Shown here piece after piece: positions 49 through 7,421 of a stretch of DNA of 50,668 bases. Position numbers and translations under genes: made by a program. The notes beneath the pieces are model-generated. The model saw only the letters and a list, made by a program, of their open reading frames with translations. It did not search any database and was not told the DNA's origin. The first letter of the stretch is position 1. Every line of letters begins with the position of its first letter. The stretch is from an uncultured Gammaproteobacteria bacterium (GTDB taxonomy: Bacteria > Patescibacteriota > Patescibacteriia > Patescibacteriales > UBA12465). The stretch covers positions 1-50,668 of the forward strand of contig CAYXNV010000006.1 in NCBI GenBank assembly GCA_964466835.1. Direction: 5' to 3'.

Positions 49-80
49 ACAAAAACAACTCCTTACAGAGTCGTTTTTGT
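49..80 (-). terminator. Hairpin terminator following the tRNA-Gly-like 3' fragment
   Basis: ACAAAAACAACTC-6nt-GAGTCGTTTTTGT; U-rich 3' arm on the minus strand. Confidence 0.7.
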
Positions 81-81
81 T

Positions 82-111
82 TAGTGAGCGGGTAACGGGA
101 ATTGAAACAAA
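82..111 (-). repeat. att site (left), 30-bp direct repeat containing a tRNA-Gly-like 3' end
   Basis: TAGTGAGCGGGTAACGGGAATTGAAACAAA is identical to 6060-6089; reverse complement contains T-loop TTCAATT, CCCGT and acceptor strand TACCCGC-T. Confidence 0.9.
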
Positions 112-299: not shown

Positions 300-1448
300 T
301 TAGTCTAAATAATAGTATATCTGATCTAGACAAAGAATGGCCTGCAATGCCCTCTCTTTTGTATATTCTGACTCTTTCGCTACTCCATGACCAGAACTGT
401 GTCTAGATATATCAATGTCATTTTTTTTCAAATCAAAATTTTTAAAAACTACTTTTTTTAAGTATTGAAGAAAAGGAATTGGTAAATACAAGGAATAATC
501 CGATCCTGATTTGTTTTTTCCCTTATCAACAATAAAGTCTATTAATTCACTGGCTTTCATCTTATCATTTTTTGTATCATTAAAATATTTTATTCTAATA
601 ATTCCTTCTATTTCAGATAGTAAAGTTTTTATAGAATTAATATATCCTTTATTGTTGTTTAATAGATATGCCTCTATGCCAGCTTCTAAAATTTGCTTTT
701 TATCTTCATATAACGTTTTTGACCACCATTTTGAAGTTAACTTTGATAATCTATTTTTATCAAATTTATTTACCACACTAGCAATTATTTTTTCTTGATT
801 AAACTTGTTATTAACATACAAATTGCTTATTTTCTTATATTCATCTCCTAATATTTCTATAAAAGGAAACCATCCGTCCTTTAACAGTTCATCAAATTTT
901 TTATTAGATTCTAATATATTATAGACATATTGAAATTCTAAATATCTGTACAAACTTCCAAGTTCGTTATAAATATCATCAATATTTAACTTTTTCTTAT
1001 TATTAAAATCAAAAAATAAACCAAACTTCCAACCAACTTTAAAACAAACAATAATTTTATCTGTTTCTTTGATGTTAATATTTTTAAATTTTAAGCTTTT
1101 TATATCCGCTATGTCATTTCTGGTTATAGCTTCGCCCTTTTTAATATCTCTCTTAGGACTTATATTCAACAGTATCCCCAAATCATTTATATGAACCTCG
1201 GCAGTGTTATCTTCGTGGACTAATGCCAGAAAGTTAGATATATAATTTATACCACCTATCTGACCTAAAAAAATATTTGAAATTTGCTCTATATACTTAT
1301 AAAAATTTAACTCATCAGAGGTCATTGAGTTTCTTGTCACCAACTTTACTATTGCCCCACCCTTTGGAACATTCTCTGTAACAAAGCCGGATATTTTTAC
1401 TTCTTTTGTTAAATTAATTTTTGTCATGTAGATATAAATTTTAACCAA
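300..1448 (-). CDS. Hypothetical protein with C-terminal HEPN-like RNase motif
   Basis: 382 aa; EGIIR (ExxxR) followed by RHSSGH (Rx4H)G near the C-terminus. Confidence 0.6.
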   Translation of the reverse strand: MVKIYIYMTKINLTKEVKISGFVTENVPKGGAIVKLVTRNSMTSDELNFYKYIEQISNIFLGQIGGINYISNFLALVHEDNTAEVHINDLGILLNISPKRDIKKGEAITRNDIADIKSLKFKNINIKETDKIIVCFKVGWKFGLFFDFNNKKKLNIDDIYNELGSLYRYLEFQYVYNILESNKKFDELLKDGWFPFIEILGDEYKKISNLYVNNKFNQEKIIASVVNKFDKNRLSKLTSKWWSKTLYEDKKQILEAGIEAYLLNNNKGYINSIKTLLSEIEGIIRIKYFNDTKNDKMKASELIDFIVDKGKNKSGSDYSLYLPIPFLQYLKKVVFKNFDLKKNDIDISRHSSGHGVAKESEYTKERALQAILCLDQIYYYLD

Positions 1449-1452
1449 TAAA

Positions 1453-1653
1453 TTATCTAAAATTTATTTTACCAAAATCATCTTCTGAATAGTCTGTATC
1501 ACATTTTTTACAAAATATTCTCTCTATGCCATCAGTTTTCTCTTTATAGACTGTTAACTCACTATCTTCTGGAGATAAAGAGGCCTCATGAAAAATAATT
1601 TCTTGGATATAAAAATCTGCTCCACCGCATTTTTTACACTTTTTTATTTTCAT
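1453..1653 (-). CDS. Small zinc-ribbon protein
   Basis: 66 aa, two CKKC motifs; 4-nt gaps to both neighbours. Confidence 0.75.
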   Translation of the reverse strand: MKIKKCKKCGGADFYIQEIIFHEASLSPEDSELTVYKEKTDGIERIFCKKCDTDYSEDDFGKINFR

Positions 1654-1657
1654 AATT

Positions 1658-2425
1658 TTATTTCAACTTATATTTACCCCTATCCAAAAACTCTAGATAC
1701 CCTTTATCTCTCAAAAACTGTAATTGTTGTCTAATTTTATCTTTTACATGCTGATTATTTGGATGTTTGTTTTGTAAGTATTCTTCAAATTGATAAACTT
1801 CTTGTAAGCTAAATTCTTTTTTGCCCAACTTATCAATACACTTCATCACATCCAATATCCAACCTTTTAATTCTTGATTTCTGGTCTCTCTCAAAAATAA
1901 AGTTTTTTGCCAATTAGAAACAATTATTTCTTTACTTTCTGGTTTACCATTTTTGATATAGAATATTTTCCCACTATCGGGAATATCTTGAAGTAAAATA
2001 TTACACCCAATCCAACCAGCTCTTCTTGCTGTTGAAGACAACGGTTTTCTCTTTTCTATAATTTCAGGAGTAAAAAAATGTTTAGGGATAACTATAAAAT
2101 TTAACACTTCAAATTTTATTGGGTCATAATTAAGAAAAAAGAAATTTGGATTATCGCTACTATTTAATCTTTCAATCATTGTTCTGTACGCACCATCAAC
2201 TATCTTTTTGCCAATAAAATCTTTTTTACTTTTTAATTCATACTCTTCGCCACAATTAGGGCAATAAAAGTCAGCAACTGGCCTATTATTCTCATAATTA
2301 CTGATATTCGTTCCGCAAGCAGGACAAAAAACTTCTTTATCAACCCAGCCTTCTGTTAAAACTCTTATTTTTTGAGAAGTGCTTTTATACGCTTCTGCAA
2401 CTTTTGTGTCAAATAAAATTTTCAT
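1658..2425 (-). CDS. DpnI-family (Dam-replacing) methyl-directed restriction endonuclease
   Basis: SQKIRVLTEGW, CPAC/CPNC, NNRPVADFYC..EEYELKSK, RRAGWIGCNI, winged-helix tail HPNNQHVKDKIRQQLQFLRDKG. Confidence 0.92.
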   Translation of the reverse strand: MKILFDTKVAEAYKSTSQKIRVLTEGWVDKEVFCPACGTNISNYENNRPVADFYCPNCGEEYELKSKKDFIGKKIVDGAYRTMIERLNSSDNPNFFFLNYDPIKFEVLNFIVIPKHFFTPEIIEKRKPLSSTARRAGWIGCNILLQDIPDSGKIFYIKNGKPESKEIIVSNWQKTLFLRETRNQELKGWILDVMKCIDKLGKKEFSLQEVYQFEEYLQNKHPNNQHVKDKIRQQLQFLRDKGYLEFLDRGKYKLK

Positions 2426-2875
2426 TTACTTTTTGATGTTGTCTAATATTTTATATGACAAATTAATATCCAAAGGGGTTTCAGAAACTACTTCAAATTT
2501 ATTTCCTTTTTTTTGAGATATTCTATAAAAATATTTTCCGCTTTCTGTTATTTGTATTCCTTGAATATTTGTTATACTTCTCAACCTCTTATCTCCTTTT
2601 TTAGACTTTAAAGTATTAGAAAACTCATTTAGAGCCTTGCCTGCGGGGTCAATGAGCTCCAATTTTATATCTGATGTATTTTCTTTTGAAAAATCGTCTA
2701 TAGTCCAGAGGCTCACAAGCTGTAAATTAACAGGAATAACTAGCTTATCACTCTTAGGCATTTTAGATTTATCTATCTCTAACTTCATTTCTTCTATACA
2801 GTTAAACAAACTTAATGAGTTAGTTTGAGAATCTATAGAAGAATTACTACAAATTATTGACCAAACATTTTTCAT
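2426..2875 (-). CDS. DUF6941-like beta-sandwich protein
   Basis: 149 aa; ICxxSxxD..SLFN, LIDPAG and GKYFY pattern recalled for this family. Confidence 0.55.
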   Translation of the reverse strand: MKNVWSIICSNSSIDSQTNSLSLFNCIEEMKLEIDKSKMPKSDKLVIPVNLQLVSLWTIDDFSKENTSDIKLELIDPAGKALNEFSNTLKSKKGDKRLRSITNIQGIQITESGKYFYRISQKKGNKFEVVSETPLDINLSYKILDNIKK

Positions 2876-2879
2876 ATTT

Positions 2880-3284
2880 TTAATTATTAATTAATAAAGA
2901 ATTTAAAGACAAGGTTTTGTCTTTTTCTTTTACGCTATAGCTAGCGGTATTACTTCCAATAAATGAAATTATATATGGAGTATTAAAGTTAAAAACTCTA
3001 CCCCAATTTTCATGATCAAATCCTAAAACATCTGCTATTCTATTTAACAAAGAAAAGCCAACATTGACATCACCATTTTCAACTCTAGAAATAACTTTTT
3101 GAGTGGTTTCCGCTTTTTTAGCCAGATCCTGTTGACTAATTTTTAAACTTTCTCTAGTGTTGTGAATTTCAACACCCAGCTTAATTCTTTCTTTTGCCTC
3201 TTTTGAATATTTATTAAAATATTTTCCCTTTCTAGCTTCAGCTATAGGATCAATATTTATTTTTTTGTTATTCATATTTTTCAT
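2880..3284 (-). CDS. XRE/HTH_3 antitoxin (HigA-like) with C-terminal extension
   Basis: ISQQDLAKKAETTQKVISRVENG HTH; overlaps the toxin gene. Confidence 0.85.
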   Translation of the reverse strand: MKNMNNKKINIDPIAEARKGKYFNKYSKEAKERIKLGVEIHNTRESLKISQQDLAKKAETTQKVISRVENGDVNVGFSLLNRIADVLGFDHENWGRVFNFNTPYIISFIGSNTASYSVKEKDKTLSLNSLLINN

Positions 3285-3693
3285 AACTTTTTGGATTTAA
3301 TTTAAATATATTTAAATATTTTTCACCAATTTGATTTTGTTTATCAACCTTTTTTCGTTCTCTTTCCGTATCATAATTAGCAGGCTTTTCAAAAGCGTGA
3401 AGAAGAACTACTTTGTCTTGATGTCTAAAATAAAGAATTCTGATTACCGTCTTTGCATCTTTTGGATTTAAGATTTCAAAACAACTATACCCATGTAATG
3501 GCTTAGAAATTGGGGGAGCAGGTATTCCTCCGCTTTCTCTAACATGATCAATTTTAGCATCAATATCAGCTAATATTTTTTGCTTTCTCTGAATTGTTTT
3601 TTCCTTGTCTTTATTTATTGGTAAATATTGTTTTAAATATTCTTTTACTGGACAGTATTTTGAATCTTCATCATAAAAATAAACAACCTCCAT
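3268..3693 (-). CDS. RelE/ParE-superfamily toxin (HigB/Gp49-like)
   Basis: CPVKEYL, SKPLHG..FEI, RILYF, VLLHAFEK; toxin-first order. Confidence 0.85.
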   Translation of the reverse strand: MEVVYFYDEDSKYCPVKEYLKQYLPINKDKEKTIQRKQKILADIDAKIDHVRESGGIPAPPISKPLHGYSCFEILNPKDAKTVIRILYFRHQDKVVLLHAFEKPANYDTERERKKVDKQNQIGEKYLNIFKLNPKSYEKYE

Positions 3694-3723
3694 ATAAAAT
3701 TATATTTTATGTTATACAAACAT

Positions 3724-3751
3724 ATTATATCCTATTGGATATAATTGTCAA
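3724..3751 (-). promoter_or_regulatory. sigma70 promoter with overlapping palindromic operator for the six-gene operon
   Basis: TTGACA (3751-3746), 16 bp, TATAAT (3729-3724); inverted repeat ATTATATCC-4-GGATATAAT at 3724-3745. Confidence 0.8.
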
Positions 3752-4148
3752 TAGCTTCTCTTTTGTTTGTAATCATTTTTTTAAAAATTACCCCAAATTC
3801 CCAAACTTTTTTAGCCTATATTAGTCACACTAAAAAGTTACCCTAAATCTTCCCCGTAACTTAGGGTAAACTCATTTTGCTATGGTGCTGACAGAAGCTA
3901 CTTTGACATAAATTTGATTAGTTTTAATCAATAAATATAGCTCTTGTTTAAATTGACCTAAATGTTGACGTCAACTTTCGTCAACATGCTCATGCTATCT
4001 TTATTTTACTCTTCTTTAAATAACATTTGGTTTATAGATAAAGCGATATCTTTTTTCGGCGATTGCCCACGCCGAAAAAAGATTGCTTATTAAACTAATG
4101 TTTTGGGAATAAAAAAAGACCTCTTGATTATCGAGGCCTTTGAGTAAT

Positions 4149-4451
4149 TTAATGTGATATGCCTGGCTTTAAGTCTTTCTTGCGAACTGGCAAGTTATTT
4201 TCCTTGCAGAATTTTTCAAGAAAGTCATAGAATTTTTGCTCCTTAGGAAGCCAAACACTAACTTTTACATGATATCCGTTAGGATGATAGTTATAGCTAT
4301 CAATCTTAGCAGGAACTCGTCCATAATGCGTATCATCACACGCAAATTCTTCTCCAAAAGCTAGGGCGAACGTCCATACTAATTCTTCAGGAATAGTCAC
4401 AGTAAATTGTATGCTTTTCCAATAAATGATTACTTCGCGATCTTTACTCAT
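4149..4451 (-). CDS. Hypothetical protein
   Basis: 100-aa ORF with a downstream hairpin at about 4111-4141. Confidence 0.65.
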   Translation of the reverse strand: MSKDREVIIYWKSIQFTVTIPEELVWTFALAFGEEFACDDTHYGRVPAKIDSYNYHPNGYHVKVSVWLPKEQKFYDFLEKFCKENNLPVRKKDLKPGISH

Positions 4452-4706
4452 GACAATGAATGTTTAATGAACAATAAAAATGAATTATATTAAATTACCA
4501 CAGCAAGCCCAAAAAGTCAAAGGATCCCTACATATCTTAACTTGATTATAACCACACATCTAACGAAAACTATTCTTGCCCAATAGTAATGTTAGATAAA
4601 AAACATAATTTTTGTTGTAAAAACTAAAGGATGTTGATAGAGTAATATAATGTTGTTTCAGACTTTCACTTGAAAGACACTGTATTGCTCTTTAACAATT
4701 AATGAT

Positions 4707-4901
4707 ATGACTGGTTTAAATACTCTTGAATCTCTATACAACATAGATCAAGTATCCTCTGCTTTAGGAATATCTAAAATCACTCTATATAGATTGGTAG
4801 AATCTAGAAAAATACCTTTCTATAGAATAAAGGGGTGTATTAGATTTTCTGAAAGAGATATAAAAGATTATCTAGATAGTATTCGTATTGAACCAGTCTA
4901 A
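4707..4901 (+). CDS. Excisionase-type HTH (HTH_17)
   Basis: YNIDQVSSALGISKITLYRLV..IPFYRI..IRF; directly upstream of the integrase. Confidence 0.88.
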   Translation: MTGLNTLESLYNIDQVSSALGISKITLYRLVESRKIPFYRIKGCIRFSERDIKDYLDSIRIEPV

Positions 4902-4909
4902 ATAAATAT

Positions 4910-6055
4910 ATGAGTGTAAGAAAAATACGAAACTCTTGGTGGATAGATTTCAGATTTAATAACTTTAGATACAGAAAAAGAAGTCCTGTTAATTCTAAAC
5001 AAGGAGCTAAAAACTACGAGGCCTTGCTTAGACAGAAACTATCTAGAGGAGAGAGCATAGAAGAAGAAAAATCTGAAAGCAAACAATTGTTTTCTCAATT
5101 TGCTTGGTATTGGTTTGATGTATATGTGAAAACTAATAACAAATATTCTGAAATTATAAACAAAGAAGGATTATTAAGAGTTCATTTAATCCCCTTCTTT
5201 GGTAAAACTAAATTAGATTGTATAAACAATCAAATGGTTGAGAAGTATAAACGAGAAAAGCAAAAAACAAAGCTGTGTAATAAAAGCATTAACAATCAGC
5301 TAACTATCCTCAGAAAATGCTTAGACACGGCTGTAGAGTGGCAAATATTGGAAAATATGCCAAGAATAAAGCTCCTCAAGACTCCACCAAATAAGTTTGA
5401 TTATCTTAATGAAGAAGAATGCGAAATATTATTAAATAATAGTTCTGGCAATCTTCATGACTTAATACTATTAGCTCTCAATGCTGGTCTTCGCTTTGGC
5501 GAATTAATTGCTCTCACATGGAAAGATGTTGATTTCAACAAAAAGATTCTTTCTATTAACAAGGCAGTAGCTAGAGGTAGACTAGGAACAACTAAGAGTA
5601 ATAAGAATAGACATATTCCTTTAACTAATTCTGTCCTAGAAATGTTTCACAACAGAAAAAGAGACAATGAATTAATATTTTCTGAAAATGACACTTTTCT
5701 AGTTCAAGCTAAATACGTGAAGAAGATACATAAGCTATGTAAAGACTTAGAATTTAGAAGAATTGGTTGGCATGTGCTTAGACACACCTTTGCTTCGCAC
5801 TTAGCGCAAAAAGGAATATCTCTAAAAGCAATCCAAGAATTGCTAGGCCATAGTGATATCCAAACCACTATGCGTTATGCTCACCTCAGCCCTAAAGAAT
5901 TAAGACAAGCGGTAGATGTTTTAAGTTTTGGGCAACAGGTGGTCAACACTCCTAATTTCAATCTTAATCTACCTATTTCATATAATAATGGGCAAAGTGA
6001 TTTAAGCCCATTAACAAAGCAAAAAGCAGAGCTTTTAAACTCTGCTTCTTGCTAA
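4910..6055 (+). CDS. Tyrosine recombinase/integrase
   Basis: GLRFGE, HVLRHT, LGHSDIQTTMRY; N-terminal arm-binding-like domain. Confidence 0.95.
   Translation: MSVRKIRNSWWIDFRFNNFRYRKRSPVNSKQGAKNYEALLRQKLSRGESIEEEKSESKQLFSQFAWYWFDVYVKTNNKYSEIINKEGLLRVHLIPFFGKTKLDCINNQMVEKYKREKQKTKLCNKSINNQLTILRKCLDTAVEWQILENMPRIKLLKTPPNKFDYLNEEECEILLNNSSGNLHDLILLALNAGLRFGELIALTWKDVDFNKKILSINKAVARGRLGTTKSNKNRHIPLTNSVLEMFHNRKRDNELIFSENDTFLVQAKYVKKIHKLCKDLEFRRIGWHVLRHTFASHLAQKGISLKAIQELLGHSDIQTTMRYAHLSPKELRQAVDVLSFGQQVVNTPNFNLNLPISYNNGQSDLSPLTKQKAELLNSASC
5929..5947 (+). promoter_or_regulatory. Putative integrase arm-type binding site
   Basis: TGGGCAACA-GG-TGGTCAAC, partner of 227-245, inside the integrase 3' end. 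Confidence 0.6.
6018..6053 (-). terminator. Hairpin terminator following the tRNA-Gly-like fragment
   Basis: AGCAAAAAGCAGAG-8nt-CTCTGCTTCTTGCT. Confidence 0.65.
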
Positions 6056-6059
6056 ATTA

Positions 6060-6089
6060 TAGTGAGCGGGTAACGGGAATTGAAACAAA
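6060..6089 (-). repeat. att site (right), 30-bp direct repeat
   Basis: Identical to 82-111; 4 nt after the integrase stop. Confidence 0.9.
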
Positions 6090-6100
6090 ATATAATATGC

Positions 6101-6763
6101 TCATATAATATTTTTTCTTCTAACCAATTTTATCCAAGCAATAATTTGTTCTTTATACAGCCTACTACTGATTGTTATGTTGCCCACTCCATAAGACAAT
6201 CTTTTTGTAGGGCATTTCCCTTGAATATAGCTACTCCCCATAAACTTATTTAGAGATAATCCAACCTCCTTTGACCAATAATTTTTACATTTATTATCAT
6301 CCAAATCTGGGTATAGAATTAAATAAATTTTAGCTTTATGGCTTATTTTAGGTAAATATTTTTGTAAAAATTTATAAAACAATTTGATCATTAAAGGGTC
6401 TGTATTAGCCACCCTTATCATGCCATTTTCTAACTTGCTGTCTCCTTCTCCCCAATATATCATTAAACCAGCAATAAATAATTTATCTTTTACAAATTTT
6501 TTAAATTGATTTTCGGCTATAATTTTTTGTCTTTTATAATTTTCTTTCAATTCGTTTCGTCTTTTATGACTAATTATCATCATCCTTTTTCTAGCATTTT
6601 CTCTGGCCATTTTTGATAAATTACTCTTAGTTTTTTCAGACCATTCAACGTTACTAAACCAATTAGATAAAGTACTCTTGGGGATATTAAGAAAATCAGA
6701 AATATACTGATAACTTTTACCTTTTTTTCTTAATTGTATTGCTTTTGTTTTGTCTTGTCGCAT
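6101..6763 (-). CDS. HTH plus LAGLIDADG-like domain protein
   Basis: N-terminal HTH (LRKKGKSYQYISDFLNIPKSTLSNW), then IAGLMIYWGEG and ANTDP motifs. Confidence 0.65.
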   Translation of the reverse strand: MRQDKTKAIQLRKKGKSYQYISDFLNIPKSTLSNWFSNVEWSEKTKSNLSKMARENARKRMMIISHKRRNELKENYKRQKIIAENQFKKFVKDKLFIAGLMIYWGEGDSKLENGMIRVANTDPLMIKLFYKFLQKYLPKISHKAKIYLILYPDLDDNKCKNYWSKEVGLSLNKFMGSSYIQGKCPTKRLSYGVGNITISSRLYKEQIIAWIKLVRRKNII

Positions 6764-6825: not shown

Positions 6826-6865
6826 AATAAACAAAACAACTCTATAAAGAGTTGCTTTGTTTATT
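6826..6865 (-). terminator. Terminator of the ssrA-tRNA-Leu-tRNA-Gly transcript
   Basis: 18-bp stem with 4-nt loop directly 3' of tRNA-Gly. Confidence 0.8.
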
Positions 6866-6866
6866 G

Positions 6867-6938
6867 AGCGGGTGAGCGGAATTGAACCGCCGTCTTATGC
6901 TTGGCAAGCATACGTACTAACCATTGTACTACACCCGC
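6867..6938 (-). tRNA. tRNA-Gly(GCC)
   Basis: GCGGGTG/CACCCGC acceptor stem, TATGC-TTGCCAA-GCATA anticodon arm, U73. Confidence 0.97.
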
Positions 6939-6946
6939 ATATTATG

Positions 6947-7028
6947 TGGTCCAGGTGGGAATCGAACCCACATGCCTTGCGGCACAGCATTTTAAGTGCT
7001 GCGTGTATACCAGTTCCACCACTGGACC
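6947..7028 (-). tRNA. tRNA-Leu(TAA)
   Basis: CAGCA-CTTAAAA-TGCTG anticodon arm, long variable arm, A73. Confidence 0.97.
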
Positions 7029-7038
7029 TACTATATTG

Positions 7039-7421
7039 TGGAGATGATGGGAGTTGAACCCATGTCCAACAGGCTTAACTAAACACATTTACAAGAATAG
7101 TCTGATTTATTTTAATTCATCTTAAACATCAAAAACCAAACAAAAGCGTTCAAGACTATCTTTCACTTGCTTCAATACTTCTTCAGAAAGAACAAAGAAG
7201 TATCTATCTTCATGAAATGACACCAGTAACCAACTATGAAGACTTGTTGGACTGATGGTTACGGCTCAAATTTTAGGCCATAACAGGAGCATAACTTGGA
7301 GTCTTCCAAGTGAATGCTTTTGCCATTTTGGCAGTTATGTTTGTTAGGTTATTTTTACGTTATAACTTAAACACGTCTCGAATGTTTAGAAAAATTCCTA
7401 CTGTCGATTCCTGGCATCCCC
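7039..7421 (-). ncRNA. ssrA: tmRNA
   Basis: 5' GGGGATG, 3' GTTCAACTCCCATCATCTCCA with G3:U70; tag frame after ATAACT at 7332-7273; 3 nt downstream of smpB. Confidence 0.95.

Follow-up and report, generated by a model that had tools for sequence, protein, structure and literature searches.

Six genes near the beginning of the window, the 50,668-nucleotide (nt) stretch of DNA analysed here, likely represent three separately conserved modules that were joined head to tail on an integrase-bearing cassette of about 6 kb at a tRNA-Gly insertion hot spot. Module A comprises genes for a Gp49-like toxin, an antitoxin-like repressor, and a beta-sandwich protein (genes 1-3); module B encodes a DpnI-family endonuclease and a zinc ribbon (genes 4 and 5); and module C consists of a gene for an HEPN-like protein (gene 6). 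The same reading explains the coupling of the modules as a side effect of compaction on a mobile cassette rather than as an evolved mechanism of six parts. The window is contig 6 of a small genome of 842 kb, which is assembled in 32 contigs and is 94.6% complete. Relatives of the window proteins carry the labels Patescibacteria and Falkowbacteria. As described in the initial annotation of the sequence, the six open reading frames (ORFs) are co-oriented and tightly packed on the minus strand, between positions 300 and 3693.

The distribution of the six genes is modular, and the breakpoints between the modules lie at gene boundaries. The DNA of the whole cluster was compared with that of 147 further genomes from the family, and the resulting loci were then searched with the proteins. 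Genes 3-2-1 together with the promoter are matched in seven of the 147 genomes, and these matches start at query positions 2122-2150, next to the end of gene 3 at 2127. The match in genome G1191 covers query positions 1151-2126, which is exactly genes 5 and 4, at 86%, and its match to genes 1 and 2 is on another contig. Other family genomes match DpnI alone, and one matches parts of gene 6 weakly. The family matches stop at or within about 25 nt of the end of gene 3, or at or near the borders of the DpnI/ribbon pair. None of the 147 genomes contains a match across a module border, and the protein searches agree. In the same-genus genome G751, genes 1-3 are positioned directly beside tRNA-Gly and are followed by an unrelated ORF of 265 amino acids (aa), not by DpnI.

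The same separation is found in more distant relatives. Among 400 sampled Patescibacteria genomes, 14 others contain a full-length DpnI, and none of the 14 has gene 1, 3, 5, or 6 within 1.5 kb. Gene 3 was surveyed in a 400-genome sample of the phylum and a 400-genome sample of the class, and DpnI, the zinc ribbon, and gene 6 are absent from the gene 3 loci in flanks of about 1-1.5 kb. The 22 gene 6 loci inspected, from bacterial phyla and archaea, contain no convincing relatives of genes 1-5 and no recurrent neighbour family. The modules split at gene boundaries, and the dedicated layered six-gene system proposed in the initial annotation is not supported. Its refuting test, co-occurrence of the genes elsewhere, gave a nearly negative result, with the junction of gene 3 and DpnI in metagenome run X7 as the sole exception. 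In PADLOC-DB 2.0, searched for a named multi-gene system, only mREase_II (DpnI) and generic helix-turn-helix (HTH) models match, and genes 1, 3, 5, and 6 match no model. The fallback offered in the same annotation, accreted unrelated cargo, describes the cluster better.

Table 1. Positions in the window of the six genes, their control elements, and the other parts of the integrative island
Feature	Position	Strand	Description
Gene 1	3268..3693	-	Gp49-like toxin, RelE/ParE superfamily, 141 aa; module A
Gene 2	2880..3284	-	XRE-family HTH antitoxin-like repressor, 134 aa, 41-residue C-terminal tail; module A
Gene 3	2426..2875	-	DUF6941-like all-beta (immunoglobulin-like sandwich) protein, 149 aa; module A, third gene
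Gene 4	1658..2425	-	DpnI-family methyl-directed restriction endonuclease, 255 aa; module B
Gene 5	1453..1653	-	CxxC...CxxC zinc ribbon, 66 aa; module B
Gene 6	300..1427 (ATG) or 300..1448 (TTG)	-	HEPN-like protein of an unnamed family, 375 aa; module C
Promoter	3751..3724	-	-35 TTGACA 3751..3746, 16-nt spacer, -10 TATAAT 3729..3724; 12/12 consensus match
Putative operator	3724..3745		Perfect 9-bp inverted repeat ATTATATCC-TATT-GGATATAAT with 4-nt centre; overlaps -10 box and spacer
Terminator-like hairpin, likely operon end	49..80	-	14 pairs followed by T-rich sequence; just outside the island repeat
Left direct repeat	82..111		att-like, resembles tRNA-Gly 3' end; exact 30-nt match to 6060-6089
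100-aa ORF in island	4149..4451	-	No Pfam or PADLOC match
HTH_17 excisionase-like gene	4707..4901	+	PF12728, 48 bits
Tyrosine integrase	4910..6055	+	PF00589, 112 bits, and SAM-like N-terminal domains
Right direct repeat	6060..6089		Exact 30-nt match to 82-111

The six genes probably share one repressible promoter. The consensus promoter and the perfect 9-bp inverted repeat that overlaps it, both noticed in the initial annotation, were recovered as described. The sequence TTGACA-16-TATAAT is the sole perfect match among 27 promoter-like sites in 4.7 kb, where shuffling predicts 27.6 sites. Perfect 9-bp repeats are common in the window (46, versus 5.9 ± 3.6 in Markov-1 simulations), so such a repeat is not rare by itself, and the operator repeat is meaningful because it is conserved. 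A TTGACA box and a palindrome that contains the -10 box and has covarying arms are present in seven of the 12 regions upstream of toxin genes, the window included, and three more of these regions (L058, L059, and L071) contain looser palindromes. Upstream of the homologous toxin genes the -10 box lies within the right arm of the palindrome. The operator of G751 is identical over a palindrome of 26 nt with 11-bp arms, whereas the surrounding region is merely 74% identical. The arms covary in L067, L068, L066, L069, and L076: they read ATATCC/GGATAT in the window and G751, ATACC/GGTAT in L067, L069, and L066, and ATATCT/AGATAT in L068. Judged by its sequence, the conserved covarying palindrome is the pattern expected of an autoregulated toxin-antitoxin promoter, and the comparisons indicate that it travels with module A. 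We infer that the gene 2 protein binds this putative operator.

The junctions between the genes, in the order from gene 1 to gene 6, are an overlap of 17 nt and gaps of 4, 0, 4, and 25 nt. The limit of 4 nt stated in the initial annotation is correct for the first four junctions. The gap between genes 5 and 6 is 4 nt only if gene 6 starts with the TTG at 1448; with the ATG, which is the start of gene 6 homologues (alignment A1), it is 25 nt. The sole minus-strand hairpin inside the genes is weak, with six pairs at 1983..1968. Since there is no convincing internal terminator, read-through into the DpnI, zinc-ribbon, and HEPN-like genes is plausible in this strain. The hairpin that likely ends the operon has a likeness of 81% to the one that follows the resident tRNA-Gly (repeat family D13).

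Several points count against the reading as three joined modules. The genes follow each other extremely closely (0-25 nt), and neither an internal promoter nor a strong terminator was found within the six genes; functional coupling in the window lineage is therefore possible. Metagenome run X7, from another study, contains contigs about 90% identical to the window over approximately 1453-3900, and one of them (record 20, 2090-2468) bridges the junction between gene 3 and DpnI. The fusion of modules A and B is thus not unique to the assembly and has persisted for some time, and X7 is the sole exception to the non-co-occurrence of the modules. Two joints in single X7 contigs connect 287 to 1453, skipping exactly gene 6, and 3824 to 6016, skipping the 100-aa ORF, the excisionase-like gene, and the integrase save its last 40 nt. 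They suggest that relatives without gene 6 and without the integrase block exist and that these parts are separable, but each joint is formed by one contig with a short side of 36 or 41 letters and 85% likeness. The junction of genes 5 and 6 is not bridged by the listed contig pieces of run X1, and the 249-nt X4 contig (1227-1475) that crosses the gap reaches just 23 nt into gene 5. Finally, flanks were limited to 1.5 kb in the DpnI survey of the phylum sample, the gene 3 surveys of the phylum and class samples, and the neighbourhood survey of the 147 family genomes, and relatives from one family are not independent of each other.

The same observations bear on the possibility that the cluster is a layered defence unit, in which the depletion of a labile antitoxin upon phage infection would release the toxin and at the same time induce DpnI, the ribbon, and the HEPN-like RNase. 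The single perfect promoter, whose -10 box is covered by a putative operator, the lack of a strong internal terminator, and the gaps of 0-25 nt fit such a unit, as does the recurrence of the junction between modules A and B in the approximately 90%-identical relative from another study. PMC11980606 reports that Gp49-family toxins with a third gene defend by abortive infection. However, no co-occurrence was found beyond close relatives (0/147 family genomes, 0/22 gene 6 loci, 0/14 DpnI loci), and each module is found elsewhere without the other two; therefore, none of them depends on the others. The single joint in X7 further suggests that gene 6 can be dropped. We consider the layered unit unlikely.

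It is also quite unlikely that module A serves primarily as an addiction or stabilisation device, by which cells that have lost the island would be killed or halted in growth, with DpnI, the ribbon, and gene 6 retained as selectable cargo. Module A is positioned at a tRNA-Gly insertion hot spot both in the window and in G751, and Gp49/HTH pairs are described on mobile elements such as Tn3-family transposons, near the recombination site, in PMC7157771. Yet in several family genomes the triple is surrounded by ordinary genes, such as those for peroxiredoxin and sugar epimerase, without a recombinase within 1.5 kb. A role in addiction is compatible with the joining of three modules and not opposed to it. 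That the cluster is a chimera of the metagenome-assembled genome, as its 32 contigs and the unbridged junction of genes 5 and 6 might indicate, is highly improbable: independent contigs of run X1 lie on all 30 depth bins with 10 of 12 records at least 99% alike, X1 records 3-6 span four junctions (5/4, 4/3, 3/2, and 2/1) as well as the promoter, and the X7 contig from another study bridges 4/3.

Genes 1 and 2 of module A form a toxin-first pair. Gene 1 matches the Pfam family PF05973 (Gp49) with 24.7 bits (E value 2.5e-5), which is a marginal pass of the cut-off of 23.9, and is 72-92% identical in triples of the same genus. Its pairing with gene 2 is kept in all 18 loci where tblastn detected a homologue of gene 1. 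Gene 2 matches HTH_3 with 40.7 bits. Its assignment as a HigA equivalog was rejected, with scores of 17.9 versus 47.7 bits for the NCBIfam HigA model and 16.1 versus 27 for Pfam HTH_37; by these scores gene 2 is classed as a generic XRE-HTH protein of HigA-like role, not as a member of the HigA family proper. The HigB-HigA label given previously thus holds for the gene order and, just over the cut-off, for the Gp49 match, and fails for gene 2 as a HigA equivalog. The pair resembles Gp49/HTH pairs of the HigBA kind in that the toxin gene comes first, the genes overlap, a RelE/ParE-superfamily toxin is combined with an HTH antitoxin, and the pair is carried by a mobile element. It differs from them in the borderline Pfam score of gene 1, the generic XRE-HTH character of gene 2, and the third gene that is attached in most copies of module A.

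The third gene encodes a protein that scores 20.1 bits against DUF6941 (PF22091), below the cut-off of 27, so that gene 3 by itself does not reach the score for the earlier DUF6941 label. Of its relatives, 12 of 21 match the family (E values up to 0.01; best 8.5e-6), and on sequence grounds the gene 3 family is a distant DUF6941 branch. A hidden Markov model of this branch recovers just three of 30 Chloroflexota DUF6941 proteins. The close relatives of gene 3 form 48 clusters. The AlphaFold2 model of gene 3, with a predicted local distance difference test (pLDDT) score of 90.9, is a nine-strand beta-sandwich without helices. Its structural matches are generic beta-sandwiches with Z scores up to 9.5, the best of which are carbohydrate-binding or immunoglobulin-like and provide no functional clue. 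Searches of PDB sequences with genes 1, 3, and 5 gave nothing below an E value of 0.02. In the class sample, an HTH gene like gene 2 is directly upstream of gene 3 in 10 of 12 loci, and the other two copies stand alone; in the phylum sample, Gp49-like and HTH genes are directly upstream in three of four good matches.

The presence of gene 3 is linked to the length of the antitoxin. The residues following the HTH domain number 34-49 in 13 of the 14 measurable copies with an adjacent gene 3 homologue, and 17 in all five pairs without gene 3, which is 17-32 fewer. The sole exception among the 14 is L118, a decayed copy. In the tail alignment, which compares 19 with four sequences, the extra tails are rich in Ser, Thr, and Asn and finish with an alternating hydrophobic stretch. 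The gene 3 protein probably acts through this extra C-terminal tail. All five short-tailed antitoxins come from one genus, and the difference may therefore reflect a single evolutionary event. In this genus, g604, the Gp49/HTH pairs without a third gene (L126, L128, and L131-L133) have antitoxins of exactly 110 aa and are followed by varied genes, for example an HD-like ORF of 236 aa.

Module A may be compared with toxin-antitoxin-chaperone (TAC) systems, in which, as described in PMC5105189, PMC6377645, and bioRxiv 10.1101/2024.02.24.581848, a HigB-type toxin is combined with a HigA-type antitoxin that has a C-terminal chaperone-addiction extension and with a SecB-like chaperone, and the extension makes the antitoxin dependent on the chaperone. 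According to PMC11980606, one member of the Gp49 toxin family (PF_gp49) is a TAC toxin with a defensive role through abortive infection. The order of toxin, antitoxin, and third protein is the same in module A, and the window-type antitoxin has an extra C-terminal tail where the third gene is present. In contrast to the SecB-like chaperone, gene 3 is predicted to form an immunoglobulin-like beta-sandwich and has no SecB family match; therefore, module A is at most an analogue of TAC. A link between the tail and the third protein is suggested by sequence comparison, in which the tail-less copies all come from one genus. Module A is possibly a new three-part toxin-antitoxin variant. A more far-reaching proposal, which we regard as doubtful, is that genes 1-3 are a new three-part kind of toxin-antitoxin system in bacteria of the candidate phyla radiation, with a DUF6941-branch immunoglobulin-like sandwich that would replace the SecB-like chaperone and hold or sense the antitoxin via its tail, and with an operator promoter that would have been co-opted on the cassette, so that release of the antitoxin would also induce the methyl-directed DNase, its zinc-ribbon partner, and the solo HEPN RNase.

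The term "DUF6941" was not found in the literature searched, and a third protein combined with an antitoxin tail of this kind is undescribed there. Canonical DUF6941 proteins are present in 148 of 351 sampled Chloroflexota genomes, with five unpublished ones counted, and are thus strikingly common for a family label without a function. A general association of DUF6941 with toxin-antitoxin pairs was considered and rejected, because HTH_3 is matched by just one of 46 upstream ORFs in 30 Chloroflexota loci. The Chloroflexota genes (L085-L114) are mostly single copies beside ordinary metabolic genes, and several are followed by a conserved-looking ORF of 75-86 aa. The idea that module A is a promoter head for swappable defence cargo was also dropped: the genes downstream in eight family loci include those for a peroxiredoxin and a hydrolase, and genes on the opposite strand.

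DpnI, a restriction enzyme of type IIM, is directed by methylation and cuts GATC sites in which the adenine is methylated. Gene 4 matches both of its domains, the N-terminal catalytic domain with 273.4 bits against PF06044 (cut-off 26.7) and the C-terminal winged-helix domain with 117.8 bits against PF17726 (cut-off 23), and the PADLOC model mREase_II with 388 bits over positions 1-254 of 256. The residues D52, E63, and K65, the presumed catalytic acidic and lysine residues by comparison with the solved enzyme, are invariant in 13 sequences, together with C34, C37, C55, and C58 of a putative Cys4 zinc site (alignment A4). By its sequence, gene 4 is firmly identified as DpnI, as it had been labelled in the initial annotation. 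The similarity to DpnI of Streptococcus pneumoniae extends over the full length and includes both the Cys4 cluster and the acidic/lysine triad. In keeping with the carriage of DpnI, the 94.6%-complete host genome contains no detectable Dam methylase of the D12 class; it has five N6_N4 methylase matches over the cut-off, with unassigned specificity. The pneumococcal DpnI cassette carries dpnD. The window clade differs from the pneumococcal system in having a gene for a 66-aa zinc ribbon downstream.

The zinc-ribbon gene has just 17 relatives, counting the window protein, and no match in Pfam, PADLOC, or NCBIfam. The gene directly before the ribbon is DpnI in two family genomes and in each of the five metagenome loci with sequence available upstream, and in two further loci the ribbon is at the contig edge. 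A relationship to Lar-type restriction-alleviation proteins was considered, but the E value is only 0.054, and it remains a lead. The genes that follow the ribbon in the metagenome loci vary, with an OLD/AriA-like ATPase, an HD protein, or a DruA-like and a HerA-like gene, and are never gene 6. DpnI/ribbon pairs elsewhere head small defence-type islands: the pair is followed by a DruA-like gene (214 bits) and a HerA-like gene in L052 (1700-8664), by an OLD/AriA-like ATPase in L049 (115-3477), and by a 462-aa protein that is ParB-like by eye alone in L124 (1453-3845). Integrases 41-46% identical to that of the window island adjoin the pairs in L052 and L124.

The gene 6 protein is formed of an N-terminal alpha/beta domain, a helical middle part, and an HEPN-like C-terminal domain, and its structure was predicted with a pLDDT of 82.9. 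Residues approximately 236-375 match about 20 HEPN structures with Z scores of 4.4-7.2 and root-mean-square deviations of 2.6-4.9 Å over 107-139 residues. The matched structures include HI0074, AF_0298, HEPN-MNT toxins, sacsin HEPN, AbiA, Csm6, AbiV, RnlA, and LsoA. HEPN proteins fill most of the top 18 structural rows, at modest Z scores. R342 and H347 of the Rx4H motif (RHSSGH) are invariant in 20 diverse sequences; the motif is located in a loop that was modelled with low confidence (pLDDT below 50 at 343-347). The HEPN label of the initial annotation agrees with these fold matches (Z 5-7.2) and with the invariant motif, and the HEPN-like C-terminal domain is probably RNA-cleaving. The C-terminal approximately 140 residues superpose with HEPN RNases such as AbiV, RnlA/LsoA, HEPN-MNT toxins, and Csm6, with which gene 6 shares the Rx4H motif. 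Unlike these proteins, gene 6 matches no Pfam HEPN family, has an uncharacterised N-terminal part of 235 residues, and lacks a partner antitoxin or a conserved neighbour.

Gene 6 belongs to a large family without a name. None of 20 members matched a family in Pfam, PADLOC, or NCBIfam at E values up to 1, Foldseek against PDB gave nothing at E values up to 0.001, and the gene 6 profile matched only chance lysozyme rows among PDB sequences (E value 0.09 or more). Only clusters without a name came from the language-model atlas, and DUF4209 (0.81) offers a weak lead. A DpnI-like N-terminal half, hinted at by tblastn matches in L021 (E value 4e-4, same frame) and L018 (E value 0.009), was rejected as chance, because the profile-profile probability is 0.2%. 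Relatives number 517 at 90% clustering and 1,115 clusters at 50%, of which 785 have E values up to 1e-10, and relatives 50-57% identical to gene 6 are present in Nitrospirae, Deltaproteobacteria, Spirochaetes, Dehalococcoidia, and Methanophagales. Around gene 6 in the 22 loci, ordinary genes predominate, and a few neighbours encode methylases, helicases, or ParE toxins. Searches of viral contigs found no relatives of gene 6 or gene 3, and searches of phage records found none of gene 6. Eight plasmids carry gene 6 relatives, which are annotated as hypothetical. On the Agrobacterium plasmid CP144667.1 (L135, 4932-7281), a 33%-identical relative follows a DUF2513 gene and is directly before a gene annotated as "Swt1 family HEPN domain-containing protein".

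The three modules could function as follows. Module A would be a self-contained autoregulated unit. Gp49/RelE-type toxins are ribosome-dependent mRNA nucleases, and PMC11980606 likewise describes a Gp49-family toxin as a ribosome-dependent mRNA nuclease. The gene 2 antitoxin would restrain the gene 1 toxin and repress its own promoter via the palindrome over the -10 box, and the gene 3 protein would act on the antitoxin tail. DpnI would cut adenine-methylated GATC DNA of incoming phages and plasmids, and the zinc ribbon may modulate DpnI. The HEPN-like domain of gene 6 would cleave RNA, with an N-terminal part that may sense, restrain, or trigger the C-terminal domain. All six genes would be read from the promoter of module A, on which modules B and C hitch-hike; with all genes on one promoter, loss of the antitoxin would therefore raise the expression of all six in the window strain.

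The division of the cluster replaces a "six-gene system" with three testable units. Module A is a recurrent three-gene toxin-antitoxin module in bacteria with tiny genomes, the zinc ribbon is a conserved small partner of DpnI, and gene 6 represents an unnamed HEPN-like family with more than 1,000 clusters at 50% identity across bacteria and archaea. The cluster indicates how a toxin-antitoxin promoter can come to drive unrelated defence genes on a compact mobile cassette, and it calls for caution in guilt-by-association predictions of defence systems from a single operon.

The six genes, the 100-aa ORF, the excisionase-like gene, and the integrase are enclosed between direct repeats in an island of about 6 kb. 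Its initial description as an integrative element is upheld by the 30-nt direct repeats, the PF00589 integrase, and the tRNA-Gly-derived repeat core. The 17-nt core occurs in just two places in the window, both of them island repeats, where none is expected by chance, and corresponds to the 3' end of tRNA-Gly(GCC) in G751. The resident tRNA-Gly, tRNA-Leu, and transfer-messenger RNA (tmRNA) are located at 6866-7421. A degenerate third copy of the repeat (73%) is present at 6862-6891 and overlaps the 3' end of the resident tRNA-Gly; at least two units are therefore stacked at the tRNA. Between the right repeat and tRNA-Gly is a 220-aa ORF (6101-6763, minus strand), with weak HTH matches below the cut-off and no PADLOC match, which may be a remnant of an older cassette. 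The arrangement is similar to that of tandem islands at tRNA and tmRNA genes, such as those at ssrA of Dehalococcoides, in that the window island is bounded by copies of the tRNA-Gly 3' end, adjoins tRNA-Gly, tRNA-Leu, and tmRNA, and has a second short unit before the tRNA.

Two elements just upstream of the 100-aa ORF, a 9-bp inverted repeat at 3962 and a strong hairpin with 14 pairs at 4048-4083, may serve as terminator or recombination site. ARAGORN predicts unusual tmRNA tag peptides, AKMAKAFTWKTPSYAPVMA in the window (7038-7421) and AKTARAFTWLTPSYAPVMA in G751 (L077, 2602-2988), which are conserved between the two genomes.

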